From a virus: DNA of 13,855 bases. The notes beneath the pieces were generated by a model that was not told the DNA's origin, made no database searches, and saw nothing but the letters and a program-made list of their open reading frames with translations. Positions 50 through 13,829 of this stretch are shown piece by piece. The stretch is from the UHGV virus genome UHGV-0141996, one strand, 5' to 3'. Numbering within the stretch: position 1 is the stretch's first letter; each line of letters begins with the position of its first letter. The position numbers and the translations under genes are program-made.

Positions 50-964
50 TTATGGTAAGTATTTAAGTATTTCTGCTGCCCAGTTTACACGGTGGATGAC
101 ACGGGCATGGTGCAAGTTTCCGTCTAGTATTTCGGCTTTAGTTAGCTGGGATAACTGCTGCCAATTATTGTTAAGTATATAAGTTGCGTTATTACATTGT
201 GAGCTTTCTAGCACGTAAATGTTTTGGCCTGTGAACCCAAATATCACGTAGCCTTGGAACCCAGCTTGCCCAACCGCTACGAAATCTGGTTTTTTACTAT
301 TGATAAGTTCAAGTCTGCCTTCAACAACAGCGGTATTGCCCTTTCCCCTGATCTTAATAGCTGAAAGGATTTTTGAACCGATAGTACTCCAAGGCTGTTG
401 ACCCTGAGGCAGGAGGCTCCAGTTTAGTTTTATAGATTTACTTTTAACGATGGTATTAAGTTGGTCGTCAACAGTTTCGCACAACCCAAAAAGCTCTAAA
501 AAAAGATTAATGCAGTGAGCCACTAACTCTTTGTTGTTAGCTGTCAAACTTAGCTTTGGAGAGATGATCAACTTCTCCCCTTGCAGATTCTCTACAATCT
601 TTAACTCTATGCTTGGTGGAGGGGTGAGGATTCTCTTGTAGCGCTTATACTCAATTTCACGAGTGTCAGTAACTTCTTGAGTTGCGCCCCCTCCGATCCA
701 TTGCTTTCTAGTCCATGAAATTTGTCTGTATGCAGTTTCTTTAGGTGCTGTTTTGTCAGGTACTGATTTGCCATTAGCATTGAATCTGGTTATTGGCCCT
801 AAAATTTTGGGGAGGACTTCTTCACCTAAAGCTCTTTGACTTGAGAAACCAATAGAGTCCGTTTTCCCCGCATCTGGCAAAGAATGTGCAATGTAGATAT
901 CACGGCCATCAAAGTTAGGTATGTAATTATCAATATTTCGAATACGCTTTTTCTGAATAAGCAT
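50..964 (-). CDS. Hypothetical protein, 304 aa, AT-rich orphan; no recognisable motifs
   Basis: Uninterrupted 304-codon ORF with ATG start and a good Shine-Dalgarno (AAGGA, 7 nt upstream on the minus strand). Composition is visibly more AT-rich than the central operon. Hairpin immediately downstream. No catalytic or family motif recognised by eye. Confidence 0.7.
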   Translation of the reverse strand: MLIQKKRIRNIDNYIPNFDGRDIYIAHSLPDAGKTDSIGFSSQRALGEEVLPKILGPITRFNANGKSVPDKTAPKETAYRQISWTRKQWIGGGATQEVTDTREIEYKRYKRILTPPPSIELKIVENLQGEKLIISPKLSLTANNKELVAHCINLFLELFGLCETVDDQLNTIVKSKSIKLNWSLLPQGQQPWSTIGSKILSAIKIRGKGNTAVVEGRLELINSKKPDFVAVGQAGFQGYVIFGFTGQNIYVLESSQCNNATYILNNNWQQLSQLTKAEILDGNLHHARVIHRVNWAAEILKYLP

Positions 965-1939: not shown

Positions 1940-2515
1940 ATGAGGACTTTTATCTACTGCCGCGTTTCAACACGCGAGCAGGATACGCAGAATCAGGTGC
2001 TGGCTATTGAGCGTGCCGGGTACACGGTGCCTGAGAGCAGGGTAATCAGCGAGGACATTTCCGGCAGCGTTCAGGCTATGCAGCGCCCTAAGTTTCGGGC
2101 GATGGTTGAGCATAAGCTGGAAGCGGGAGATCAGCTTGTCGTGCTGAAACTGGACAGGCTGGGGCGCGACAACATCGACGTGCAACAGACCATCGACATG
2201 CTGTTAGAACGTGGCGTGAAGGTGGTGTCTCTTGACCTGCCAGCGCGTGATCTGACTTCATCTGAGGGCAAGCTAATCCGCCAGATGTTTGGAGCTTTTG
2301 CTGAGTTCGAGCGAAACCGTATCCGTGAGAGGACGCTGGACGGGCTGGAGAAGGCGAAAGCCAATGGCGTTAAGCTGGGACGCAAGGAAGCCACCGACAC
2401 CACTGAAAAGGTGCTGGAGTTGCGGAGTGAGGGGCTGTCTCAATCGAAGGTAGCGAAGCGTCTCGGCGTTAGCGTGAGCACCGTTAAACGCCACTGGAAC
2501 AAGGGCGAGGAGTGA
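1940..2515 (+). CDS. Small serine recombinase (resolvase/invertase family), 191 aa
   Basis: N-terminal YCRVSTREQ motif with the catalytic serine. LVVLKLDRLGRD and FAEFERNRIRERT blocks align by eye with gamma-delta/Tn3 resolvase. C-terminal HTH (SQSKVAKRLGVSVSTVKRH). Strong SD. Confidence 0.9.
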   Translation: MRTFIYCRVSTREQDTQNQVLAIERAGYTVPESRVISEDISGSVQAMQRPKFRAMVEHKLEAGDQLVVLKLDRLGRDNIDVQQTIDMLLERGVKVVSLDLPARDLTSSEGKLIRQMFGAFAEFERNRIRERTLDGLEKAKANGVKLGRKEATDTTEKVLELRSEGLSQSKVAKRLGVSVSTVKRHWNKGEE

Positions 2516-3215
2516 TGGCCTACAACCGAATGAGGTGCTATGACTGGCCGTTACTGGGCTGTGGGTGATGGATGACCTACAGCTTTTGTATTAATTTCAG
2601 AGGGTTATGTTATGCGTAATATCATAACGATATGATTTATAATGTATTTTCGTATTACTTGCGGCTCTCGATGTGAAGAGGTGGCGGGGCTTTAGCCGTG
2701 CCAGACGATGAACATCGAGATCAGATTGTGAATGTGATTCATCACTGAACAATTCGAGGGATGGGGCAGGGGAAGGGATCAAAGGCTGCGTTGTCCAATC
2801 ACTAAGCTAGATTTGAAGCTGGTCAACACGTTAGTAGTATCTTTAAAGTTGCATTTTAAATACATGTACAAGAAAGGGTTCTTCCCTTACATCCCTTCTC
2901 CTAAATGTAGTTACGAGTGCTTCGCTCTCTTCACTTGCTGCGCTTCTCGCTATGCTCCAGCCCGCTCCATCGCCTTTGGCTCATTCCCGGACTTCGCCCG
3001 CTGTGATGCTCGGCCACTCTACGCAACCGTGCTTGCCGTGGCAGGCAACGCGGCGGGGATGTGTAGTGGAACGGTACTCTGTATCGGTATGATTACTGTA
3101 TTCAATCACATACTGGTATCAGTAGGTATCCTTCAAAACATCTTCATTCATTTCTGTATCGTTCAATCATCTTTCTTGTTCGTTTCCTTTCAGGTCTTAG
3201 CCGTTGGTCATTGGT

Positions 3216-3330
3216 CTTACTGCCTGCTGTGCTACTGCCAGCTATGGCACGCCGTCACGGTCTACTGTCTGTTACCTGTCCTACTGCCTTCACTGTCTGC
3301 CGTCTGTCAGTCCTACGGTCTGCCATCCGT
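3216..3330 (+). repeat. Iteron-like short repeat cluster in a pyrimidine-skewed ORF-poor region
   Basis: YTACTGYC-type motifs at 3216-3224 (CTTACTGCC), 3231-3239 (GCTACTGCC), 3261-3271 (TCTACTGTCTG) and 3281-3288 (CTACTGCC). CTGTCTG-type motifs at 3293-3308. Tandem CATCCGT CATCCGT at about 3324-3337. The plus strand is strongly C/T-rich. Confidence 0.4.
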
Positions 3331-3778
3331 CATCCGTTCGGCGCTCGCTTGTTTCGGCTGCGCCGCGCTCGCTCTGCGTATCTAGCGATACTATATCACT
3401 ATAGACACTTTCATAATTATATAATGATTACAGTAACTTATGTTTTCTGTTTTAAAAGCTACTAATAAGGAGATATAGAGCATTACTTACCCGCTTTTGA
3501 CCGACAAAAATCGCGTTGTTAAGTATTGCCAGCCCAGGCTCAATAAGGCTTAGCGAGGTGGTGGCTAAAAAATGAGCTAATGAAGGTATCTACTAAGGAG
3601 AAAGAATAACTCCCGAAGCGCGACAAACTCTCCGATTTTGAAAGTGACTATTAAGGCAGATAAAGACACTGACACTGTTGCTGACATGAAAACTTCTAAA
3701 AGGGCAGAGAGTCTGCCGAACCCGTACCGCTGACCCAACCTGAGCTAATACCTACCCCTATTTTCTGGAGATTTCACC

Positions 3779-5623
3779 ATGCCAACAAACCTACGCCGCC
3801 TGCTTGCGCAGGCTGCCGACGCTGACCCGCTCAATACTGCGGACGCAGATGTACAGCAAATGATCGCTGACGGGATTGTTATTCGACGTTCCAAGATATG
3901 CCCTGTAAAGCGTAAACCCGTTAAGGCGGCATACAACACAAAGACCGAAGAGTTTTATTACAATGCAGATGGCTCCGCGATGACCTTGCGGGAGTGGCGA
4001 ACGCTGCACGGTGTTCAACCGAAGAAACAAAAACAGCGCTCTGACACTGGGTTGCGGCAAGTCATCCAGCCCGGCGACGCGATTCACTGCCGACGCGCTG
4101 AGATTGAGCAATGGCTTAATAAGAAGCCCGCTCGTTATGTTGACCCGCTGCCGCCAGATTTTCCCGGTGTTCGCGTAGACGATGCCGCATTGAAACCGCG
4201 CGAGCACGCCGTGCCGGAAGCGACAACCGGACAGAATGCTTTTCTCAAAGCCTGCCGCGAGTTCCTGATTTGCGATGAGAAGACCATGCGCCGTATCAGT
4301 CGGGGCATGAACCAAATGGAAGCTATGCGCAACGCAGATTTCAAACGCTACGGAGACTCAGGGGAGTTTCGTCAATTGTGGTGTGGAGAGTCGAAGCCTA
4401 CCGAAGATAGATTTAATAGTTCTAATCATCATTGTGACCCGAACGGCTTGGCTGCTTCGCCGTCTGTGCCGCCACTGAATACTGCACCGTATGAGTTCCG
4501 CCCGCTGGCTCGCTGTGACCGAAACGCACGCGTTAGCCTGCTGCCACCTGATGGGCTGGAGTGGAGGCCGGGGCAGTTGTCTGTTGCTGATGCGATCTTT
4601 TCCCGTGGCAGTGATGTGCTTGCCGTACTGCCGACCGGGTATGGCAAAAGCGCCGCCTTCACTTATCCATTGATTTATGAGTCCCGCGCTGGCATTGGCC
4701 TGTCTGTAATCGTGGTTCCTACTAATACCCTTAAGCGTCAGATTCTCCGCCAGTTGCGGGAGGCTGGCATTCACGCTGTGGCCTTTGGCGATAAGCTACC
4801 GAGGCACCGCAACGCACAACAACTGGCGGGACTAGCAGCCGGGGCGTTCCGGGTTGCTGTTGTTTCGCCTGAACATCTGGTTCCGTCGAGTCAGGTTCTC
4901 GCGGCGCTGATGGCTTATGGCGTTGATCGTTTTATTATCGATGAGGCACACACGGTCAAAGACTGGGATTTCCGCCCAGCTTACGACGCAATGCAGCACA
5001 CACTACAGAATGCTTTTCCCTCGGCTCAGCGCTGCGTGTTTACGGCTACTCTACTACGTGAAAATGAGAGCGGTTTAATGGAGGCGCTGGGATGCCGTGG
5101 CGATTACGTTACATTCCGTGCTGATGTTGCTCGCGAGAATATCCAGTTGATTCCGGTCAGGCAGTGCCGCCAGCGATACCGCGCGGCTGTTGGTCTGGTC
5201 GAGGCTCTGCCAGAGGAAGAGAAGACGCTCATTCTAGTCAATGACCTTAAGACGTTGCGGGCGTACCTGAAACTCTTCGGCGACCGGGCGCGCCCATATC
5301 ACTCGAAGACGATGCACCTGAGCAACGAGGAACGCCACGCAAACGCTGAGTGGTTTGCCTCTGCGCCGGGCGCGATTCTGATTGCTACTAAAGCCTTCGG
5401 GCTGGGTGCTGATGTTCCTGATATCCGTAACGTTGTCGTGACATACGTTCCCGATGACTTGCCTGATCTCGTTCAGATGATTGGACGAGCCGGGCGCGAT
5501 GGGGAACCTGCCCGCGCTTTTCTGCTGTGGTCATCGCTGGCGCTGGATGTTGCTCCTGATGAGCTTGCTTACTTCTACCGCCCTGAAAACTGTAACTGGC
5601 AGTACATCGCTAAATACCTCTGA
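3779..5623 (+). CDS. RecQ-like superfamily-2 DNA helicase, 614 aa, with a roughly 280-aa N-terminal region of unknown function
   Basis: Helicase motif I LPTGYGKSAAF, motif II DEAH box FIIDEAHTV followed by DWDFRPAY (RecQ-like), FTATL, and motif VI QMIGRAGRDG. SD GGAG 9 nt upstream of the ATG. The N-terminal region has no recognisable primase or helicase motif. Confidence 0.85.
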   Translation: MPTNLRRLLAQAADADPLNTADADVQQMIADGIVIRRSKICPVKRKPVKAAYNTKTEEFYYNADGSAMTLREWRTLHGVQPKKQKQRSDTGLRQVIQPGDAIHCRRAEIEQWLNKKPARYVDPLPPDFPGVRVDDAALKPREHAVPEATTGQNAFLKACREFLICDEKTMRRISRGMNQMEAMRNADFKRYGDSGEFRQLWCGESKPTEDRFNSSNHHCDPNGLAASPSVPPLNTAPYEFRPLARCDRNARVSLLPPDGLEWRPGQLSVADAIFSRGSDVLAVLPTGYGKSAAFTYPLIYESRAGIGLSVIVVPTNTLKRQILRQLREAGIHAVAFGDKLPRHRNAQQLAGLAAGAFRVAVVSPEHLVPSSQVLAALMAYGVDRFIIDEAHTVKDWDFRPAYDAMQHTLQNAFPSAQRCVFTATLLRENESGLMEALGCRGDYVTFRADVARENIQLIPVRQCRQRYRAAVGLVEALPEEEKTLILVNDLKTLRAYLKLFGDRARPYHSKTMHLSNEERHANAEWFASAPGAILIATKAFGLGADVPDIRNVVVTYVPDDLPDLVQMIGRAGRDGEPARAFLLWSSLALDVAPDELAYFYRPENCNWQYIAKYL

Positions 5624-5660
5624 GTCGAAAGGCTCTCCCTGATTCTCTGGAGTTAATCAT

Positions 5661-6098
5661 ATGCCTGTTACCGAACATGCGCAGCGTCGTGCTGCGCGTG
5701 CGGATGCGCTCATCACCGCACAACTAGCCTTTGCCCTGAATGGGTACAACTGGGATGAACTGGCCGAACCTCATCGCAAGACCCTTAATCGTGAGGCCAT
5801 CATTAGCGAGGTATCTACACCGCTGGAGCGATATTGCCTGCTGAATGATTGCGAGCCGTGGGAGTGTCTGGCCGCTGTACTGAACCGCATGAAAAGGCCG
5901 GATGGCTCGCGTCGCTGGAAAGCCGTCCGGTTGTCCGACCGGGTTTTCAATGGCCGGGTGCATCCAGTGCGCAAGACTCCTGATGAAGTTTACGCCGCCA
6001 TTGCCCGCCGCTTGTTCCTGCCGAAGCCTGTGCATCAAGAAGTGATACAGCACATCCGTGCGCTTGGCTTGTTACCAGTTGGAGATAACCACCAATGA
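5661..6098 (+). CDS. Hypothetical protein, 145 aa
   Basis: ORF with GGAG SD 8 nt upstream. Stop overlaps the next start (ATGA at 6095-6098). Codon usage and GC match the operon. Confidence 0.6.
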   Translation: MPVTEHAQRRAARADALITAQLAFALNGYNWDELAEPHRKTLNREAIISEVSTPLERYCLLNDCEPWECLAAVLNRMKRPDGSRRWKAVRLSDRVFNGRVHPVRKTPDEVYAAIARRLFLPKPVHQEVIQHIRALGLLPVGDNHQ

Positions 6099-6304
6099 CG
6101 AAATCTGAATTTGAAAATGAAACATGGCGAATGAAGGGCTTGCTTCTTGGGGCGCTGATTCGCCGCCTTGAGGAAGATAAGGCTGGCGAGTCGCGCATGG
6201 TCGCAGCGGAGTTATCCAGTGCGGTCAACTTCCTTAAGGCCAACGCCGTAGAAGCACCGGACACATCATTCAACAACGTGTTCCCGGAGGATGACGAACA
6301 ATGA
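6095..6304 (+). CDS. Hypothetical small protein, 69 aa
   Basis: ATGA overlap with the upstream gene, GGAGA SD, and its stop overlaps the next start (ATGA at 6301-6304). Confidence 0.55.
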   Translation: MTKSEFENETWRMKGLLLGALIRRLEEDKAGESRMVAAELSSAVNFLKANAVEAPDTSFNNVFPEDDEQ

Positions 6305-6477
6305 CCCCTGAACAATTCAGACAATGGTTCGCCACGCTGCCACCGAACTATCAGAGCGCCGCACGCACCATGTACGACAACGCCCGCAAGTCGGGCATAC
6401 ATACCGCGTCAAGCCTTGCGCTGATTCACACGTTGGTTACTGACCAGATCAAATTTGATTCGGAGTTTAATTTATGA
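6301..6477 (+). CDS. Hypothetical small protein, 58 aa (below the ORF-track length cutoff)
   Basis: Hand-translated: ATG at 6301, TGA at 6475-6477, giving MTPEQFRQWFATLPPNYQSAARTMYDNARKSGIHTASSLALIHTLVTDQIKFDSEFNL. GGAGG SD upstream. ATGA overlaps at both ends, continuing the translational-coupling pattern. Confidence 0.45.
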   Translation: MTPEQFRQWFATLPPNYQSAARTMYDNARKSGIHTASSLALIHTLVTDQIKFDSEFNL

Positions 6478-7037
6478 CTTTGAGTATTACCGATATCCAG
6501 CGCATTAACGCGCTGGCTCATAAGCACCTAAAGAACAATGAAGAGATTGCAGCGGAGACAGGTCATACCCTGACCGATATTGATGCTGTAATCCGTGGCG
6601 TCTATGTCGATGACTTGGCCGAACATTGGAAAGACGATGCTGATATTACTCTGGCGGAGTACAACGCCATCCGCAGCCGCTATAAGCCCGGCAAGTTGCA
6701 CCGCGATACAGAGTTTATGATTGCCCGCGATATGCTGATTCGCCCTGAGACTGTGCTGGCTATCGCCCATTCCCGCTTTAGCAACGTCCACACGCACCCA
6801 GTGCCGAAAGCCGTCAAAGCAAAGCCGGAGAAAGCGAAAGTAGTGCGCAAGTTAGTGCTTACTGATTTAGATGAAATCCACAAGTTAGAGCGCTTCGGTT
6901 GGCCTGCTGCGGAGATCGCCGGGAAGCTGGGCGTCCCTGTTGAAGTCGTCGCGCATGTGCAACGCTGTCTGAGAAATCGTTGGTCGTACCCGGATACTCT
7001 GGAGTTTGTTAACTCCAAATTCAGCGAGGCTGAATGA
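6474..7037 (+). CDS. Hypothetical protein with C-terminal HTH-like segment, 187 aa
   Basis: ORF with GGAG SD. C-terminal LTDLDEIHKLERFGWPAAEIAGKLGVPVEVVAHV resembles an HTH/sigma-region-4-like DNA-binding segment. ATGA overlap with the next gene. Confidence 0.6.
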   Translation: MTLSITDIQRINALAHKHLKNNEEIAAETGHTLTDIDAVIRGVYVDDLAEHWKDDADITLAEYNAIRSRYKPGKLHRDTEFMIARDMLIRPETVLAIAHSRFSNVHTHPVPKAVKAKPEKAKVVRKLVLTDLDEIHKLERFGWPAAEIAGKLGVPVEVVAHVQRCLRNRWSYPDTLEFVNSKFSEAE

Positions 7038-7270
7038 TGGCAGAGAACGAACCGCTGCACCCCGCCGTTAACCCTGATCTCTACGTGAACCTTGACGAAC
7101 AACGCGAAGGATACGCTCCGATTGAATCACGGGGTTGGGATGTGCTGACGCAGAACCTGACCGGGGAAGGGCGAATCGACCCCAGCCAAACACTTAACCA
7201 GAATCCGAAACAACGCCCGCGCGGCTCCGTTGGTGAGCGTCGTTGGCTTCGTAAACGTAGATTACTTTAA
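7034..7270 (+). CDS. Hypothetical small basic protein, 78 aa
   Basis: ATGATG tandem start (7034 or 7037) with GAGG upstream. Arg/Lys-rich C-terminus. Confidence 0.5.
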   Translation: MMAENEPLHPAVNPDLYVNLDEQREGYAPIESRGWDVLTQNLTGEGRIDPSQTLNQNPKQRPRGSVGERRWLRKRRLL

Positions 7271-7282
7271 CGAGGAATTACC

Positions 7283-7522
7283 ATGAGCAAAACTATCGTA
7301 TTGCTGCCGCCACGCAAGAATACAGACTGGGCTGCACAATTAAAGCTGATTTCTGAATCGCTTGAGGTGAGTCAGGCAGACCTCGCCCACGCCTATCAGG
7401 TTGATCGTCGGGATATGGGTAAAGCGTATCACGGTGTGCGCAAACTGCCGGAACGTTGTGTGCCTGTTCATATGCTGTTGTTAGCGCAGGTACACGACTT
7501 TAGAGCATTATCAGGAGAATAA
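7283..7522 (+). CDS. Hypothetical small protein, possible HTH DNA-binding, 79 aa
   Basis: GAGGAA SD 5 nt upstream of the ATG. Central segment SQADLAHAYQVDRRDMGKAYHGVRKLPE is compatible with a Cro/XRE-like HTH; weak. Confidence 0.5.
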   Translation: MSKTIVLLPPRKNTDWAAQLKLISESLEVSQADLAHAYQVDRRDMGKAYHGVRKLPERCVPVHMLLLAQVHDFRALSGE

Positions 7523-7525
7523 TTT

Positions 7526-8254
7526 ATGTCTGACCAGAATGTTAATCCGTACCTTTCCGGTGCTGATACTGCATCGCAGCAATCGCCGTACATGGCTGCA
7601 CCTGTTGGCGCTGACAATGGCGCATCTCGCTTTAGCTCTGCGCCTGCTGATGCTGATTTCCTCCGTACCCAGCCCGTTAATGGCAATGATGGCGGCCAAT
7701 GGAATAATGGCAACATTGCTAATCAGCAAGACCAGAACGCGGACAGCGCCGGGGCGCAGGTGGGCGATACTATCCCCCTGATGGATGGAACAGCTATTGA
7801 GTACACCGCCGAGCTACAAGGGTTAATGGGGCAGTTTCACCAGTCTGTCGAAAGCCAGCTAGGGCAGGGGACAGTTGACGCGATGTTGCAGTACGCTGGC
7901 ACACTCGACGCTGGGACGCAATCCACCCTTGAACGTATGGTTATGTCTGGCGACCCTGCGCAGATGCAGCGGGCGGTTCAGTACCTGCAAGAACGTATGG
8001 CTGCTGGTTCTGCTTCCGGGTACGTTCCTGCACAGGGAAACCCATACGGCCAGCCTGCCGCGCAACCTGTCGGAATGTCACATGCTGAGTTTATAGCAGC
8101 GTATGACCAGCTTTCGCAGTGGGCGCAGCAATCAGGGTATGGCCCCGGCCATCGCCAGTACGACGAACAATACCGTGCTCTGGTTGCGCAGCGCTCCGCT
8201 GGCAAACGTGCTGGTCGCTTACGCCCAACGGTGGAATGCGCCCTGCAAGACTGA
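7526..8254 (+). CDS. Gln/Ala/Gly-rich low-complexity protein, 242 aa; possible scaffolding protein
   Basis: Strong SD AGGAGA. Low-complexity Q/A/G/D-rich composition with predicted helical C-terminal half. Sits immediately upstream of the capsid-like gene region, as scaffold genes do in T7-like and P22-like head modules. The functional call is positional and compositional only. Confidence 0.4.
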   Translation: MSDQNVNPYLSGADTASQQSPYMAAPVGADNGASRFSSAPADADFLRTQPVNGNDGGQWNNGNIANQQDQNADSAGAQVGDTIPLMDGTAIEYTAELQGLMGQFHQSVESQLGQGTVDAMLQYAGTLDAGTQSTLERMVMSGDPAQMQRAVQYLQERMAAGSASGYVPAQGNPYGQPAAQPVGMSHAEFIAAYDQLSQWAQQSGYGPGHRQYDEQYRALVAQRSAGKRAGRLRPTVECALQD

Positions 8255-8317
8255 GTGCGCACCAACCCGGTACTACCACACCAATCTAAGCGCATGAGTC
8301 CCCGCAAGCCGCATTCT
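8255..8317 (+). repeat. Intergenic GC-rich motif block related to the 1539-1601 block
   Basis: GTGCGCACCAACCC (8255-8268), GCGCATGAGT (8290-8299) and CAAGCCGCATTCT (8305-8317) recur in the same orientation at 1539-1601: GTGCGCATGGAGT, GTGCGCACAACCC (1572-1584) and CAAGCCGCATTCT (1589-1601, exact 13-mer). Confidence 0.45.
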
Positions 8318-8360
8318 GCGCGGCATCTGAAAGCCTGTTTTTAATTAACCGAGGTTCGTA

Positions 8361-8774
8361 ATGAGTACCTGTAATTTCCATGCCGTGGTGCGTGTCGCTG
8401 ACGTGCGCCCGGATTTCGCCTTGCCGCTGGGTAGATGCGACCACATTTACCCTGAGCGTGTGCAGCACGTTTTCAATCCAGACGAAGCGGTTTATATCGT
8501 TGCCCGGTCTGCCACATCCGGCACCCGCACATCTGGCGTTAGCCGTGGGCTTTCCCCTGTGCTGCCGCCGAAGATGGCCGAGCGGATGCGCGAACGTAAA
8601 CGGCACGAGAAGAATCGAGCCAGACCCCGCAAGGTGATCACTGAGGCGATACGCGCTGACATTATCGATCGCTCTGCAAAAGGCCAGAAGAATCGTTACA
8701 TTGCAAGCAAGGTTGGCGTGTCTGAAACCTCTGTGCGGAAGGTGTTGAACATGGCGCGTATGAGTGCGCACTAA
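8361..8774 (+). CDS. HTH-domain protein, 137 aa; possible regulator or packaging-associated DNA-binding protein
   Basis: GAGGT SD. Basic Arg/Lys-rich middle (RMRERKRHEKNRARPRK) and C-terminal HTH-like segment (IIDRSAKGQKNRYIASKVGVSETSVRKVLN). Confidence 0.55.
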   Translation: MSTCNFHAVVRVADVRPDFALPLGRCDHIYPERVQHVFNPDEAVYIVARSATSGTRTSGVSRGLSPVLPPKMAERMRERKRHEKNRARPRKVITEAIRADIIDRSAKGQKNRYIASKVGVSETSVRKVLNMARMSAH

Positions 8775-8993
8775 TGCAAGGTAATACGTTCGCCTTACTT
8801 CACGCGCACTAACCCCTGAGAACCGCGCCAGCTCTGGCCTCAAAACGCCCATTTCGGGGCACCTCATCCCTCTTAATCGATACCGTTCTGAATCCTGCCT
8901 CGGCGGGAGGATTACGCACGCCCGCGCCATGACGATGGCCGGGCTTATCTCGTCAGTGAATCCGCTGGCACAACCTACGTAGGAGTTTTACAT

Positions 8994-9989
8994 ATGGCCG
9001 ATAACATTTACTCGCCTGACCAGTTCCGCCCACATTATGGCGGGGTGGAATCTGACAATGATATTCACATCGAGGCTTATGACCGGGATGTCCAGACCCG
9101 TTTAGAGTCCAAATCCGTATTTCTGGCCGAGGGGCTGTCTACATACAGGCCGCTGAAAGCCAGCAACCAATACCGCATTGATCGCCTGAGTGGTGATCTT
9201 GAGGTGAAGGGCAGAACCGCAGGGCAATCGCTGGAGCCTACCGCCGTTAAGTCGGACAAGTTGGTTATCTCTGTGGATACGCTGAGCTATATCCGCATCC
9301 CGATTGACTATCAGGATGACTGGACAGCTCCCACCTTTCGCGCAGAGCTGAGCCGCAATATCGGTACTGCTCACGCTAAATTCTACGACGAAGCGCACAC
9401 CATCCAGCTAATCAAAGCGACTGACTTCGTACCGCCGCCGACACTGCAACCAACGTTTAACCCGCTTACGGATAATGTTGTCTCGCTCGACCTGACAGCG
9501 GGGAGCGAAGAGGATGCAGCTAACGAACTGGTTCACGCTATCAAAGCTGCTGTTAATCGATTCCTGACTGAGAAAGATATTCCGGTGGCGGAGCTGGTAC
9601 TGCTTATCGACCCGGCTTGGTTCAGCATCCTGATGGAACATAAGAAGCTGATGAACGTCCGTTACAGCCGGGATAGTGGCAACGATTACGCATGGCGTCG
9701 TGTTGGCTATGTCGCTGGGGTGCGAGTTATCGAGCTGAATAGTTACCCGCAGGAAGCCATTACCGGGCATGAACTGGGCGCTGATTATGACGTTACCGCA
9801 GAGGAAGCGCTGACGAGGGCGACGCTGTTTAAACCTTCCTCGGTACTGTTGACGGTCGAAGCGCAGAGCGTCATCAATCGCCAGTGGGATGATGAAAGCG
9901 AAATGACGATGGTGATGGACTCATATCGCCTGTTCAACGTTGGGCTGCGTCGTCCTGACTGCGTTATCAATTTCCGACAAGCTGCATAA
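8994..9989 (+). CDS. Putative major capsid protein, 331 aa, T7 gp10-like by eye
   Basis: Strong SD AGGAG. Length and block pattern resemble T7 gp10 from memory: KLVISVDTL..IPIDYQDD...RAEL..NIG.AHA and a C-terminal VLLIDPAWFSIL ... GVRVIEL ... LF..S.V.L.V block. No protease gene adjacent, consistent with a scaffold-dependent capsid. Confidence 0.55.
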   Translation: MADNIYSPDQFRPHYGGVESDNDIHIEAYDRDVQTRLESKSVFLAEGLSTYRPLKASNQYRIDRLSGDLEVKGRTAGQSLEPTAVKSDKLVISVDTLSYIRIPIDYQDDWTAPTFRAELSRNIGTAHAKFYDEAHTIQLIKATDFVPPPTLQPTFNPLTDNVVSLDLTAGSEEDAANELVHAIKAAVNRFLTEKDIPVAELVLLIDPAWFSILMEHKKLMNVRYSRDSGNDYAWRRVGYVAGVRVIELNSYPQEAITGHELGADYDVTAEEALTRATLFKPSSVLLTVEAQSVINRQWDDESEMTMVMDSYRLFNVGLRRPDCVINFRQAA

Positions 9990-10005
9990 CTGGAGGGGCT
10001 GAGTC

Positions 10006-10515
10006 ATGGTTAATGATGCTTACGCCCCTGAGCTGTTGCGATCCCTTTTCCTGTATGACCCGGTGACAGGTCGCCTGCACCATAAAGCTAACCGACGCCG
10101 GGTTAAGGCTGGCTCCTATGCTGACTCCACCCAGCGAGCTGATGGCTATCGTCAAGTTGCCCTGCGACTTGATGGCAAGCAGTACCAGCTAAAAGCCCAT
10201 CGCGTGGCATGGATTCTTGCGCATGGCGCTATTCCTCACGGTAAGCAGATCGATCACATCAACGGTATCCGTGACGACAACCGCCTATGCAATCTGCGTT
10301 TGGTTACGCAGCGGGAAAACGACCAGAACCGACGCAAGGCAAGGGGATATAGCTGGAATAAAGGCAGTAGCAAATGGGAGGCTTACATACGCGTTGATGG
10401 TGTACTCCGTCACCTTGGCTTATTTACTACCGAAGCGGCGGCGCGTGCTGCCTATCTAAAAGCTAAAGCCAGATACCATCCCTCAACGCCAGCCGATTTG
10501 TTGCAGGCTGCCTAA
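10006..10515 (+). CDS. HNH endonuclease with C-terminal AP2 domain, 169 aa
   Basis: HNH motif HRVAWILAHGAIPHGKQIDHINGIRDDNRLCNLRLVTQRENDQN. AP2-like segment YSWNKGSSKWEAYIRVDGVLRHLGLFTTEAAARAAYLKAKARYH. SD GGAGGGG. Confidence 0.85.
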   Translation: MVNDAYAPELLRSLFLYDPVTGRLHHKANRRRVKAGSYADSTQRADGYRQVALRLDGKQYQLKAHRVAWILAHGAIPHGKQIDHINGIRDDNRLCNLRLVTQRENDQNRRKARGYSWNKGSSKWEAYIRVDGVLRHLGLFTTEAAARAAYLKAKARYHPSTPADLLQAA

Positions 10516-10533
10516 TCCTCGGAGGTTCCATAT

Positions 10534-10959
10534 ATGGCTGATGAAAAGCCGATTAGAGCGCTGGCAGATGATGACCCACGCCGCCAGCGGTACGCTGAAC
10601 TGATGGCGCAGGCTGGCCGCATGACTATTCCCCGACTGCATCCGGGCGATGCTAATAGTGTTATGAGCCAACTTGCGACGATGCTCGGCGCACCTGTCCC
10701 GATAGTCGGTGCTATGACTGAGCACGCCGCTGCATGGCGTGCCTGTATGCTGGAGCAAGGGCTTGGCGATCTTCTGGATGGCTTGAGTAAACAGGTGCTG
10801 ACCATCTTCTTTCTGCTCTGCTGGAGAGACAGCGCCTTGCGATTGGCGGGTAAGCAAAAGGAACGGCTTACAGCGGCCAGCGAGGGTTTGACCATTGAGC
10901 AATACCGGGCGATGCACCCGGCTTACAGAGAGAATAAAGAAGATGATAACCACGATTAA
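10534..10959 (+). CDS. Hypothetical protein, 141 aa, in the position often occupied by a small terminase subunit
   Basis: Strong SD GGAGG 8 nt upstream. Lies immediately downstream of the HNH gene. No recognisable motif; the small-terminase suggestion is positional inference only. Confidence 0.55.
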   Translation: MADEKPIRALADDDPRRQRYAELMAQAGRMTIPRLHPGDANSVMSQLATMLGAPVPIVGAMTEHAAAWRACMLEQGLGDLLDGLSKQVLTIFFLLCWRDSALRLAGKQKERLTAASEGLTIEQYRAMHPAYRENKEDDNHD

Positions 10960-11242
10960 ATTAAGGTGGCGGTACATCGAGCCGCCGCCAATGACTGGCG
11001 CACTCGCTGACCTGAAACAGTGGGTAATGGATACCGGAGAGCCTGAGCTGGAAGCTGAATTTCGTAAGCTGCTGGGGCTAATGCGCCGCAACGGTATCAG
11101 TGACGAACGCGTTAATGCGATGGCTGATGAGCTTTATGTTCTGGTTTGCCAACGCCAGTGCGAAGAATACGAAGCCTGCAAGCGGGCTGCGTCTGACAAT
11201 GGAGACTTTGAATCATGGTTACACGGACAGACCAACTACTAA
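10943..11242 (+). CDS. Hypothetical small protein, about 99 aa; start ambiguous (alternative upstream start at 10895)
   Basis: The ORF track starts at 10895 and overlaps the upstream gene by 65 bp. The in-frame ATG at 10943 (MITTIKLRW...) is preceded by AAAGAAG and gives a minimal overlap. Cys-containing segment CQRQCEEYEAC. Confidence 0.45.
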   Translation: MITTIKLRWRYIEPPPMTGALADLKQWVMDTGEPELEAEFRKLLGLMRRNGISDERVNAMADELYVLVCQRQCEEYEACKRAASDNGDFESWLHGQTNY

Positions 11243-11640
11243 GAAAAGCGATGCGGGACTATCTGGAACACCTCGGCAACATGCCGTTGGCTGAACGGAT
11301 TACAAATGCTGCTGTATTCGAAGATGTGTATCGCTTCCTGTTGAATGGTTCCGGTCGGCTGGAGTTGCGCCGCGCTGATGTGGCCGCTGTTCGTATCTTC
11401 CTGTGGAATTACCAATACCGACGCTGTGCGGTGACAGGTAAGCCGCTGCGCCTTACGTCTGCCGTGCTAGATCACTGCCACCGAACCGGGCGCGTGCGTG
11501 CTGTGGTGCATCGTTCTGCTAACGCTGCTGAGGGAGGCCGCTACGTTGGGCGGACGTGTGGTGTTAGCGTTGCGAACTTAAGGGCTATGGTTGGCAGCTA
11601 TCGCAAGCAATACACCGGTATTGGCGTGTTATATCCATAA
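11215..11640 (+). CDS. Endonuclease VII-like (HNH superfamily) protein, 141 aa
   Basis: Segment CAVTGKPLRLTSAVLDHCHRTGRVRAVVHRSANAAEG matches the Endonuclease_7 pattern (C..C-like ... DH.H.TG.VR ... N...G) with substitutions. GGAG 9 nt upstream. Last gene of the plus-strand operon. Confidence 0.55.
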   Translation: MVTRTDQLLRKAMRDYLEHLGNMPLAERITNAAVFEDVYRFLLNGSGRLELRRADVAAVRIFLWNYQYRRCAVTGKPLRLTSAVLDHCHRTGRVRAVVHRSANAAEGGRYVGRTCGVSVANLRAMVGSYRKQYTGIGVLYP

Positions 11641-11642
11641 TA

Positions 11643-11661
11643 GCGGGGTAATAAACCCCGC
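11643..11661. terminator. Candidate bidirectional terminator hairpin between convergent gene blocks
   Basis: Perfect 7-bp stem GCGGGGT / ACCCCGC with AATAA loop, 3 bp after the plus-operon stop (11640) and 21 bp after the minus-strand gene stop (11682). Flanking A/T-rich sequence on both sides, but no long U-run. Confidence 0.5.
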
Positions 11662-11681
11662 CGAAATAGTAGCGTAGCCAC

Positions 11682-12584
11682 TCAAACAGGAATGTTGTAG
11701 TAATGACAAATGGCATTAGTTAGTAGAGCTGGTGCAGCAGATGCTGCAATATTTAGCGTTCCCGCATATGCTTTACCAATCATATCACCAAGCCACCCTC
11801 CAACTTTTCCTCCTAAATTATCCATAGTGGTGGGCACTGGAGATTCTTGTATAGCTTGCTGAAGCGTTGTTATGTCTGCTTCTGAAACTCCCCATTCTTT
11901 AAGTTGTTTCTCCAGCGAATTAAAATCTCCTGCTATAATCGTGTTATTCTGGTTAATGTCTCCAGTATTCCCAGCACCAATACTGCCTGCATTATTAACT
12001 GCGCCATTAAAAATATTAGTATTGTTAACCGTCATAGGAGCGACCTCTTTTTCTGCCTGAGTGAACAATAACCCTTCACCCATAATCCCCTGTTTTTCTA
12101 ATTCAAGTGACCAATCAAGAATCTTGTTTCTTACAGTTGTGACTATGTGAGCAAATTTACCAGAACTAAAGAACCAGCATATTTCAGGTCTTGAATGTTG
12201 ATCGTGATATAACATTTCAGCCATTTCTAGTGGGATAGGGAGCCTTATATTTCCTTTTGTGCCCTCTGCTCGTATCATTGATGCTATAGATTCAGTGAGT
12301 GTATAAGTAGTAAACTTACGCATAATCTTTGCGCTTATGTTACCAAGATCAACTGGAATCCAGCCGTTGAAAGGGTTATAGGCTTTTAACTGACCGTGCC
12401 CAGTTCTATATTCTGGGGCTGATGCAATTGTAGGGTAGCCATTCAATTCGTGCTCAATCCAGCCTGTAACATCTTCCAGGCCAAGCTTGACGGCTATTAC
12501 TTTAGCTTTCATTAAAAGAGCGATAATATCAGTGTTAGGATCGCTTGCAAGAGCTTGAAGTTCAAGAACTGGTGAGTTAGCCAT
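11682..12584 (-). CDS. AT-rich cargo gene, 300 aa; putative AbiTii-like abortive-infection protein with Asn/Gly-rich C-terminal half
   Basis: Intact ORF with strong SD (TAAGGA 6 nt upstream on the minus strand). N-terminus (LELQALASD..IIALLMKAKVIAVKLGLEDVTGWIEHELNGY) resembles AbiTii-type domains as I recall them; unverified. C-terminal half is N/G-rich low complexity ending in a hydrophobic segment. Located between the integrase and the phage-like operon; markedly AT-rich. Confidence 0.45.
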   Translation of the reverse strand: MANSPVLELQALASDPNTDIIALLMKAKVIAVKLGLEDVTGWIEHELNGYPTIASAPEYRTGHGQLKAYNPFNGWIPVDLGNISAKIMRKFTTYTLTESIASMIRAEGTKGNIRLPIPLEMAEMLYHDQHSRPEICWFFSSGKFAHIVTTVRNKILDWSLELEKQGIMGEGLLFTQAEKEVAPMTVNNTNIFNGAVNNAGSIGAGNTGDINQNNTIIAGDFNSLEKQLKEWGVSEADITTLQQAIQESPVPTTMDNLGGKVGGWLGDMIGKAYAGTLNIAASAAPALLTNAICHYYNIPV

Positions 12585-12603
12585 TTCAAGTCCTTAGTAG
12601 TGT

Positions 12604-12631
12604 TTTGATAAGATATCTTACCCTTATCAAA
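12604..12631. promoter_or_regulatory. Palindromic candidate operator in the leader of the AbiTii-like gene
   Basis: Perfect 12-bp palindrome TAAGATATCTTA (12609-12620) nested in a 9-bp inverted repeat TTTGATAAG (12604-12612) / CTTATCAAA (12623-12631), 20-50 bp upstream of the minus-strand start codon at 12584. Confidence 0.35.
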
Positions 12632-12671
12632 CTGTGCAGTCTAAGGTTGGTCGGTCAAACTCACCTTTAAG

Positions 12672-13829
12672 TTATTTGCTTATTTCATCATTTGTGATTT
12701 GCTCGACATACTTCCTCGTCTCTATAGGAGAAGCTGCATTTTTCGAGTAAGTTTTGAAGCTCTCTGTACTCCCGCGCTCATGACCGACGAGCAGGGCAAT
12801 ACGATCCTCTGGTACTTGAGCACGGTCGAGCTGTTGCACAAACGCATGGCGGAGTGAGTGAAACACTTTTCTCTCTGCGGCAGGTTCGCCAAGCGCTTTG
12901 CGCTTCGCCCGTGTGAACTGCTGGGTGTGCCACGTTGAACGCTTTCCGTCTGCCCGGTCTGTGATTGAGGCGTGATAGAACAGAAAACCGCTATGTGTGG
13001 TCTTGAGCAACGACTTCACGAGAGGGATTAGCTTGCTGTGTACTGGGACGATTCGTGCCGCGCTCTTGGTCTTCCCCTCGGTGATCTCAAAGCACAAAAC
13101 GCCCTCGATGGTTTTAATACTGCTCTCACGCAGCGTACATATTTCATTGATCCGCATACCGCTGTAAGCACCAATAGCCGTTACCGCCTTCATCTCGTCA
13201 TCAAGTAAGGTATAGATCTTTGCCAGCTCTCCCGGTGCGAAGACTTCATAGCTGACCTTGCTGCTTTTTGCTTCGAGCGCATGACCACGCCAAGGATTGT
13301 CCTGTGGTGCATCGTGATAGCGATTGCGTGCCAAATCCCAAATCTGTGCCAGTGCGCTTATATAGTTCTGGATGGTTTGCGGCGCTCGCTCAGTTTTGAG
13401 CTTATCTAACCAGCCTGTAACTATGGATCGATTAATATCCCGCAACTGAATATCTTTCTTTTTCAGGTGGGTTAACAGCACCTCTACGGCTTTGTTGGTC
13501 TTGGATAGCGTGGTTAGCTTTCTCTTCTCACTGTATTGGAGAAGATACAGATCGCGCATTTTAAGTAGGGAAGGGCAAGCCTGAACCGATGCACCAAATG
13601 ATGCGGGGGCTTCCTTAGCATACACACTGACACGGCGTAGCTCATCAATGATTTGATCTACGGATGAGCCGCCTTGCGGCTTAAGCAGATTCCGTAAGCG
13701 AGTCCATTCCAGAGCAATAGCATCGCGAAACAAACGCGCTTGCCGTATGTCTCGTGTCCCTGTGCTTTTCATAAAGTAGCGCTTCCCTTGGAACAGGTGG
13801 CGCATGTAGATGGGAATAGCTATCCGCAC
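12672..13829 (-). CDS. Tyrosine recombinase / phage-type integrase, up to 385 aa; start ambiguous (GTG at 13829, ATG at 13805 or 13772)
   Basis: Tyrosine-recombinase motifs: Arg in GMRINEICTLR, HSLRHAF (His-x-x-Arg), LLVGHERGSTESFKTYSK (His and catalytic Tyr). The ORF track begins with GTG. The internal ATG at 13772 is preceded by AAGGGAAG and would give 366 aa. Confidence 0.9.
   Translation of the reverse strand: MRIAIPIYMRHLFQGKRYFMKSTGTRDIRQARLFRDAIALEWTRLRNLLKPQGGSSVDQIIDELRRVSVYAKEAPASFGASVQACPSLLKMRDLYLLQYSEKRKLTTLSKTNKAVEVLLTHLKKKDIQLRDINRSIVTGWLDKLKTERAPQTIQNYISALAQIWDLARNRYHDAPQDNPWRGHALEAKSSKVSYEVFAPGELAKIYTLLDDEMKAVTAIGAYSGMRINEICTLRESSIKTIEGVLCFEITEGKTKSAARIVPVHSKLIPLVKSLLKTTHSGFLFYHASITDRADGKRSTWHTQQFTRAKRKALGEPAAERKVFHSLRHAFVQQLDRAQVPEDRIALLVGHERGSTESFKTYSKNAASPIETRKYVEQITNDEISK

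Follow-up and report, generated by a model that had tools for sequence, protein, structure and literature searches.

An AbiTii-domain protein as probable stand-alone anti-phage cargo of a capsid-encoding, satellite-like island

The window, by which we mean the whole 13,855-nucleotide stretch of the virus genome UHGV-0141996 that was analysed, carries between an integrase gene and a phage-like operon a complete gene for a 300-residue AbiTii-domain protein (positions 11682..12584 including the stop codon, minus strand). From sequence comparisons, this gene is probably a stand-alone, single-gene anti-phage cargo of the abortive-infection (Abi) type, which occupies an integrase-adjacent hotspot in a small integrative, capsid-encoding island resembling a satellite. 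A defence role is the best reading because the protein contains an AbiTii domain and because its gene lies in a variable slot that holds other defence systems in related islands.

An AbiTii gene in a variable slot beside the integrase

The limits of the gene were taken from the list of open reading frames (ORFs) and its identity from Pfam and PADLOC matches. It starts with an ATG, preceded 7 nt upstream by the Shine-Dalgarno (SD) sequence AAGGA (12591-12595), and it runs opposite to the phage-like operon, as an earlier note made from the letters of this DNA had described. The AT-richness reported in that note is also clear: the GC content of the gene is 0.405 (0.30 at third codon positions, GC3) and that of its leader 0.379, against 0.547 for the plus-strand phage-like operon (helicase GC3 0.57) and 0.50 for the integrase gene. 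Its position next to the integrase gene was confirmed as well. The tyrosine integrase gene (12672..13829, minus strand; Pfam Phage_integrase, 5.3e-17) lies directly upstream in the same orientation, 87 bp from the AbiTii gene. The N-terminus of the integrase is cut by the window end; its full version has 403 residues in related loci, and it is 95-96% identical in loci L002, L013 and L023 and in E2348. On the other side, the Endonuclease VII (EndoVII) gene (11215..11640, plus strand; Pfam Endonuclease_7; PHROG 423, 9e-16) closes the phage-like operon. It is convergent with the AbiTii gene, is 94-100% identical in related islands and forms the conserved right-hand border of the slot.

The resemblance of the N-terminus to AbiTii, which the earlier note had suggested, was borne out by profile-HMM searches. 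The Pfam family AbiTii (PF18864) matches residues 6-185 with E=4.8e-40 and 138.2 bits, for a curated bit-score cut-off of 27.6, and the match covers profile positions 3-187 of 189. The PADLOC model AbiTii (PDLC02334) matches with E=4e-44 and 149 bits over profile positions 2-183 of 185, while the NCBIfam search returned no model for the gene product. These profile matches identify the N-terminal domain as a genuine member of the AbiTii family. A total of 428 homologues were found with E<=1e-3; nearly all of the best 120 listed are about 300 residues long, and those among them with a named source come from Enterobacterales. NCBI already lists an identical protein under the name 'abortive phage resistance protein [Escherichia coli]'. 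The AbiTii assignment predates this analysis, so that the gene is not new in itself.

The window corresponds to an integrative element encoding a tyrosine integrase, a small serine recombinase, a DEAD-box helicase, a scaffold-like protein (7526-8254), a major capsid protein (MCP; 8994-9989), an HNH endonuclease and EndoVII. Genes for terminase, portal or tail proteins are absent. The capsid protein shares 57% identity with its counterparts in Autographiviridae of about 42 kb, such as Escherichia phage Lidtsur. Judging from this gene content, the carrier looks like a capsid-encoding phage satellite that is neither P4-like nor a classical phage-inducible chromosomal island (PICI), and we found no description of this type of island in the literature. 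The island spans 1940-11640 and is syntenic in loci L001 and L026-L028. The syntenic element of E. coli E2348/69 neighbours tRNA-Leu and the hsd/mcr region, and 163 of 5,426 complete E. coli genomes carry the backbone. The identical AbiTii protein has also been deposited from a viral metagenome-assembled genome (MAG) as 'MAG TPA: AbiTii [Caudoviricetes sp.]'; all or part of the island was thus assigned to a virus when a metagenome was binned, which fits its packaging into particles.

We compared the window with four elements that share the same backbone. Their integrase, EndoVII, HNH endonuclease and capsid proteins are 93-100% identical to those of the window and their helicases 87-100%; their AbiTii proteins are 95, 61, 61 and 44% identical to the window protein. 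The slot between the EndoVII and integrase genes holds a type II methyltransferase with a C protein and an endonuclease in KFu019, a hypothetical protein with a ThsB-like TIR protein (ThsB_TIR, Pfam 1.1e-14) in S1, a 214-residue unknown protein in C6, and other AbiTii alleles in UTME-7, USMARC-50748 and E2348/69. As judged from these occupants, the integrase-adjacent slot is a defence hotspot in which one defence system is exchanged for another. The cargo slot postulated in the earlier note is hence real: between the 93-100% identical flanks stand AbiTii alleles, restriction-modification (R-M) genes or TIR genes. Two related loci illustrate such occupants. At L027 (11660-13002), a 242-residue unknown protein and a ThsB-like TIR protein form a possible Thoeris-like pair without a recognisable ThsA, and at L026 (13172-15011) a compact type II R-M system with its controller protein sits in the same slot.

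The protein could instead be a core or regulatory part of the satellite life cycle, for example a helper-phage sensor for induction or capsid redirection, and not defence cargo. The gene is indeed carried by an island that encodes a capsid and a scaffold, and a Klebsiella relative is found at one edge of another element with a capsid gene. In addition, phage mutants escaping lactococcal AbiT map to the major capsid protein and to early genes, according to the passages on AbiT in PMC13064643. We nevertheless find such a role improbable. Close islands lack an AbiTii gene and carry R-M or TIR genes instead, and only a small minority of the 163 backbone genomes have an AbiTii gene in the slot (9 DNA-level matches, a count that may miss divergent alleles). 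The base composition of the gene is unlike that of the backbone, and the family is found beside serine recombinases on unrelated small elements and, for relatives at <=40% identity, on 137 plasmids.

A similar neighbourhood is seen beyond this backbone. In 12 of 17 loci belonging to many genera, a tyrosine or large serine recombinase is encoded immediately upstream on the same strand, counting recombinases that are separated from the gene only by a tandem AbiTii paralogue. The AbiTii gene is either alone or accompanied only by a paralogue in the 17 loci, and tandem paralogues occur in 5 of them. Tandem pairs are located directly after a large serine recombinase in L006/L007 (7064-8912), L012, L015, L016 and L019. 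They belong to a small element of Klebsiella, Serratia, Rahnella and Mixta whose insertion site is a DUF72 gene, and the paralogues, about 45% identical, diverge most in residues 59-150.

Domain organization and allelic diversity of the AbiTii protein

An AlphaFold2 (AF2) model was built on 50 homologues, with a mean predicted local distance difference test score (pLDDT) of 79. It comprises an alpha+beta N-terminal domain, a disordered motif and a four-helix end. The N-terminal AbiTii domain (residues 1-185; 12030..12584, minus strand), which we propose to be the sensor, is predicted to fold over residues 1-184 as a mixture of helices and strands, with pLDDT values mostly between 80 and 94; no fold relative was found in the Protein Data Bank (PDB). 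E46, Y50, P57, R60 and W158 are invariant in the 50 homologues. The AbiTii passages of Anantharaman et al. 2013 (PMC3710099) describe an N-terminal, globular alpha+beta domain of about 180 residues with a highly conserved glutamate, to which E46 presumably corresponds.

Column entropy and identity profiles delimit a hypervariable sub-region within this domain, at residues 59-150 (12135..12410, minus strand), which covers mostly its beta-strand part. The mean column entropy reaches 2.2 bits in this sub-region as against about 1.0-1.3 bits elsewhere, and the identity falls to 15-55% as against 50-85% outside it, whether alleles or tandem paralogues are compared. Two of these comparisons combine 75-76% identity in the C-terminal part with only 15-35% in residues 59-150, so that the diversity of this sub-region points to replacement of alleles or segments. 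DNA matches are confined to the gene ends, which is consistent with segmental replacement. Residues 59-150 likely constitute a trigger-sensing surface. The ratio of non-synonymous to synonymous substitutions (dN/dS) was calculated against the 95% identical allele of L002. It is 0.09 for the AbiTii gene, similar to the values for the flanking genes (0.05 for the integrase, 0.09 for EndoVII), which argues that the gene is functional. These substitution ratios show an intact protein that is selectively maintained under purifying selection.

The C-terminal half had been described in the earlier note as an Asn/Gly-rich, low-complexity region ending in a hydrophobic tail. An N/G-rich stretch does exist, with 10 N and 5 G in the 30 residues 186-215 (11940..12029, minus strand), but it is confined to about these residues and it is conserved. 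Its column entropy is 1.02 bits, and N188, Q212 and N214 are invariant in the 50 homologues. We therefore consider this Asn/Gly/Gln-rich stretch, which is conserved as much as any part of the protein, as a motif and not as a spacer. It contains spaced hydrophobic residues, it is predicted to be disordered in the monomer (pLDDT below 50 at residues 184-213), and it accompanies the helical domain in non-AbiTii proteins too. The tail itself is part of a predicted, unnamed four-helix domain (residues 216-300; 11685..11939, minus strand), whose helices (221-230, 235-247, 259-274 and 281-296) are modelled with pLDDT values of 77-91 and which can hardly be called mere low complexity. W264, A272, C293 and I298 of this domain are invariant in the same homologues. 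Its last helix is weakly hydrophobic: the Kyte-Doolittle maximum in a window of 19 residues is 1.18, lower than is usually required for a transmembrane segment. A transmembrane or tail-anchor role of the C-terminus was rejected on this hydropathy peak; the faint Pfam match to FtsK_4TM (E=0.21) is unconvincing.

The C-terminal part has no match to any Pfam family even at E<=10, and none to the PDB or to HEPN domains. Its sole profile match is PHROG 16090, a family of unknown function (E=1.9e-8). An exhaustive HMMER search with residues 186-300 returned 792 representative clusters at 50% identity, and the module is C-terminal in all of them. Among the 150 representatives listed, a recognisable AbiTii domain is present in 94 of the 145 newly returned ones. 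Other N-termini also carry the module, such as that of a 676-residue STAND NTPase (nSTAND1/AAA_22), and it ends proteins of 363, 409 and 496 residues that are devoid of any Pfam domain. The C-terminus is thus a conserved, modular and unnamed domain, which we propose to be an output, effector or assembly module. The match to PHROG 16090 prompted a search for free-standing, phage-encoded copies of the module: the short proteins turned out to be contig-edge fragments or remnants of broken genes, tblastn gave no match in 50,697 phage genomes, and the module was found at only 4 loci in IMG/VR.

AbiTii domains are elsewhere fused to HEPN domains of the c2405 and Ymh families, and one HEPN family in these fusions 'keeps H but lacks R' (AbiTii passages of PMC3710099). 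The C-terminal domain might accordingly be a very divergent c2405-type HEPN RNase that causes death by RNA cleavage: the published fusions are to HEPN domains, these domains consist of about four helices, and the window protein has a histidine, His294, in its last helix. Such an identity is very unlikely. No HEPN family of Pfam was matched at E<=10, H294 is variable in the 50 homologues, and an hhalign comparison with the c2405 candidate of CFT073 gave a probability of 0.14%. The CFT073 gene, which was taken as c2405 by inference from the gene order after tcpC, showed no similarity to the family profile, and a HEPN/c2405 identity of the C-terminus was not retained.

The module begins exactly at Met184, and a candidate internal start (12033..12049, minus strand) is found at this place: it is made of AAGAGG (12044-12049), a spacer of 8 nt and the ATG of Met184 (12033-12035). 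The predicted product would have 117 residues and comprise the N/G-rich motif and the four-helix domain. We examined 24 unique homologous genes, in 19 of which the search pattern located the boundary motif. All 19 have an SD-like motif followed by ATG or GTG at the module start, for an in-frame ATG/GTG background of 15%. In 8 of 9 independent lineages, the glutamate whose codon provides the GAGG uses GAG, a codon that makes up 37% of the Glu codons gene-wide, and both Val variants at the position of the start use GTG. Three 'first paralogues' of tandem pairs have no internal Met. Taken from codon conservation, a second product of 117 residues starting at Met184 is suggestive only.

The protein could also be a toxin-like addiction module that stabilises the island, with the short internal product as antidote and no specific role against phages. 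The recombinase-adjacent position that recurs across element types, the possible second product and the AT-rich cargo, typical of selfish modules, would fit this proposal. We judge it unlikely, since an arms race with phages would better explain why allelic diversification is deep and focused on one surface and why genuine defence systems take the place of the gene in its slot. The proposal partly overlaps the defence role favoured here, because toxin-antitoxin behaviour is common among Abi systems.

The leader and other regions of the island

The leader of the AbiTii gene, from the integrase stop to the AbiTii start, is 87 bp long (12585..12671, minus strand) and was analysed in a six-way alignment. 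A perfect 12-bp palindrome, TAAGATATCTTA, is present in it, as the earlier note had pointed out, at 12609..12620 and nowhere else in the window. Perfect 12-bp palindromes are fewer in the whole window than shuffled sequences predict (2 versus 3.5 expected), and the chance of finding one within an 87-bp leader is about 0.025 (p value). The palindrome is mildly unusual by its place, not by its count. The same note had taken it for an operator under dedicated repressor control. In this hypothesis, a small helix-turn-helix (HTH) protein of the island would bind TAAGATATCTTA and silence the gene, which phage infection or induction of the island would then release. Several features speak for it: the dyad overlaps the candidate -10 box and the predicted start region at a place where chance seldom puts it, a longer imperfect inverted repeat, TTGATAAG-N10-CTTATCAA, encloses it, and small HTH-like proteins are encoded on the island, for example at 8361-8774.

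The alignment argues against such an operator. Of four leaders of this type, only that of the 95% allele (L002) retains the dyad. The leaders of E2348/69, Kluyvera and Enterobacter, which are otherwise about 90% identical (about 90% between the window and E2348/69), read TAAGATACCTTA, which breaks it. The dyad is absent from all other leader types, the leaders of other clades being unrelated, and the outer repeat is not conserved either. The sequence that is conserved in the six aligned leaders, including the divergent one of L023, is GGGTA(A/G)(G/A)AT, which includes the left half of the palindrome. This half is the -10-like hexamer TAAGAT of a candidate promoter (12615..12620, minus strand). 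A weak -35-like hexamer, TAGACT, lies upstream at 12638-12643 with a spacer of 17 nt, and the pair scores 8 of 12, too low to be called by the consensus scan; Xenorhabdus and Photorhabdus leaders have TAGAAT/TAAAAT at the same distance. Repression through a dedicated operator is thus unlikely, and the palindrome is most likely a chance extension of the promoter -10 box, as far as leader conservation can tell.

The AbiTii and EndoVII genes converge on a 41-bp gap that contains a GC-rich hairpin, GCGGGGT-TTATT-ACCCCGC (11642..11662). Its folding energy is -22.1 kcal/mol (z=-3.2), none of 200 shuffled sequences is as stable, and a strict T-tract scan did not call it; it is likely a bidirectional terminator for both genes. 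A consensus scan called neither a strong sigma-70 promoter nor a canonical terminator in the leader or the 3' gap, and the promoter and terminator assignments consequently rest on conservation and folding. No terminator separates int from the AbiTii gene 87 bp downstream. Expression of the AbiTii gene is most likely constitutive and low, driven by its own weak promoter with the predicted -10 box TAAGAT and/or by read-through from the integrase gene; co-transcription with int is possible.

Other regions of the island were also inspected. At the end opposite to the AbiTii gene, a second AT-rich ORF, of 304 residues (50-964, minus strand; GC 0.41), gave no match in Pfam, PHROG or PADLOC. Islands differ at this end too: KFu019 has the same gene, and E2348/69 and C6 have different genes, among them one for a DUF3800 protein. 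We regard this end as a possible second cargo hotspot. The DEAD/RecQ-like helicase of the island (3779-5623, plus strand) matches the PADLOC model 'DpdF' with E=8.8e-278 and the dpd cluster for 7-deazaguanine modification is absent, the DpdF model apparently taking in this family of satellite helicases. Finally, the region of about 1.2 kb between the serine recombinase and the helicase (2516-3778) contains no credible ORF, and none is annotated in E2348/69. It shows a strong negative AT skew and short direct repeats of the CTGTC / CTACTGCC type around 3214-3308; an origin, a site for packaging or a regulatory region may lie here.

Proposed mode of action and comparison with known systems

We propose that the AbiTii domain would act as the sensor, recognising a phage-made trigger through the hypervariable surface of residues 59-150, and that the C-terminal module would be the output. 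The latter assignment is made by analogy, because the module is placed where the HEPN RNase of other AbiTii fusions or, in trans, the lactococcal AbiTi stands; the presence of the module on a STAND NTPase and on other N-termini also supports it. Upon activation, the protein would probably self-associate through the N/G-rich motif, a step proposed with low confidence, and growth arrest or death of the infected cell would result. By analogy again, the lactococcal escape mutants, as reported in the passages on AbiT cited above, hint at the kind of trigger, namely the major capsid protein or the products of early genes.

Several points weigh against this proposal. The NCBI label 'abortive phage resistance protein' rests on homology only, and we found no published test of any enterobacterial AbiTii member. 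The lactococcal prototype needs two genes and has no established mechanism. Equally, the active part of the protein could be the AbiTii domain, by virtue of its invariant E46/Y50/R60 cluster. Positive selection was looked for in residues 59-150 and was not seen, the omega value being 0.07 for a single close pair.

To our knowledge, no mechanism has been established for AbiT since it was described in 2002, and the AbiTii domain has neither a solved structure nor an assigned activity. The fused C-terminal module, the single-gene form, the series of alleles in a constant backbone and the carrier island were not found described in the literature. As a single gene of E. coli-type hosts, with a natural allele series in a constant background, this enterobacterial form offers a tractable entry point: residues 59-150 across alleles could show what AbiTii domains sense, and the fused module how they signal. 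With about 800 clusters at 50% identity and no entry in Pfam, this module deserves a name and a function. The findings also extend defence hotspots to a satellite-like element built on an Autographiviridae-type capsid gene.

The AbiT system of Lactococcus lactis (Bouchard et al. 2002) is the closest in family: the same Pfam and PADLOC AbiTii family covers the N-terminal 185 residues of the window protein, and both genes belong to mobile elements with a presumed abortive-infection role. According to the passages on AbiT in PMC13064643, the lactococcal system requires AbiTi, a predicted endoribonuclease of about 127 residues, together with AbiTii. It consists of two genes, and its AbiTii, of about 213 residues, is essentially the domain alone, whereas in the window protein a module of 115 residues is fused in cis. 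No co-oriented partner ORF is present beside the window gene, whose neighbours are the integrase gene and the convergent EndoVII gene, and AbiTi was absent from the best 25 of 36 PADLOC families for 20 ORFs of the window, where a match weaker than an E value of about 2e-4 is possible. The window gene is therefore not the lactococcal two-gene AbiT. A search for an RNA partner or antitoxin gave no Rfam match, tRNA or tandem repeat in the window.

The AbiTii-HEPN fusions, as presented in the AbiTii passages of PMC3710099, likewise combine an N-terminal AbiTii domain and a small helical C-terminal domain in one polypeptide. The C-terminal domain of the window protein differs by the lack of a HEPN signature and of a conserved His or Arg, and those passages do not mention its N/G/Q-rich motif. 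With respect to location, the hotspots of P4 and P2 (PMC9122126) and PICI-encoded immunity share with the window a fixed slot bordered by core genes, here those of the integrase and EndoVII, with unrelated occupants. The carrier differs from P4 and classical PICIs by its combination of DEAD-box helicase, scaffold-like protein and MCP without terminase, portal or tail genes.

A further parallel is offered by the Bab/Agp Abi system of E. coli ECOR25, in which Bab, a helical executioner of 109 residues, shares an amyloid motif with its sensor (bioRxiv 10.1101/2024.11.07.622273). Both systems have a Gly/Asn-rich motif of about 25-30 residues beside a helical domain of about 90 residues with a hydrophobic terminal helix, both are found in a defence context on E. 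coli mobile elements, and the possible 117-residue product is near Bab in size. The order is inverted in the window protein, where the motif precedes the helical domain; Bab/Agp is moreover a sensor and an executioner encoded by two genes, as opposed to one gene whose terminal helix is weakly hydrophobic. The second motif-bearing polypeptide that amyloid-signalling pairs comprise could be either the internal-start product or a tandem paralogue. It is conceivable, although we hold it to be a long shot, that the gene yields two products, a full-length sensor and a free 117-residue protein made of the motif and the four-helix domain, and that the full-length protein, once it detects a phage, seeds a prion-like, amyloid-type assembly through the motif common to both, which recruits and activates the free pool and leads to death. 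If this were true, the gene would match the Bab/Agp and HET-S systems in a version reduced to one gene and inverted in order, and the cassette of motif and helical bundle would be a portable death module, used by STAND NTPases and other sensors.

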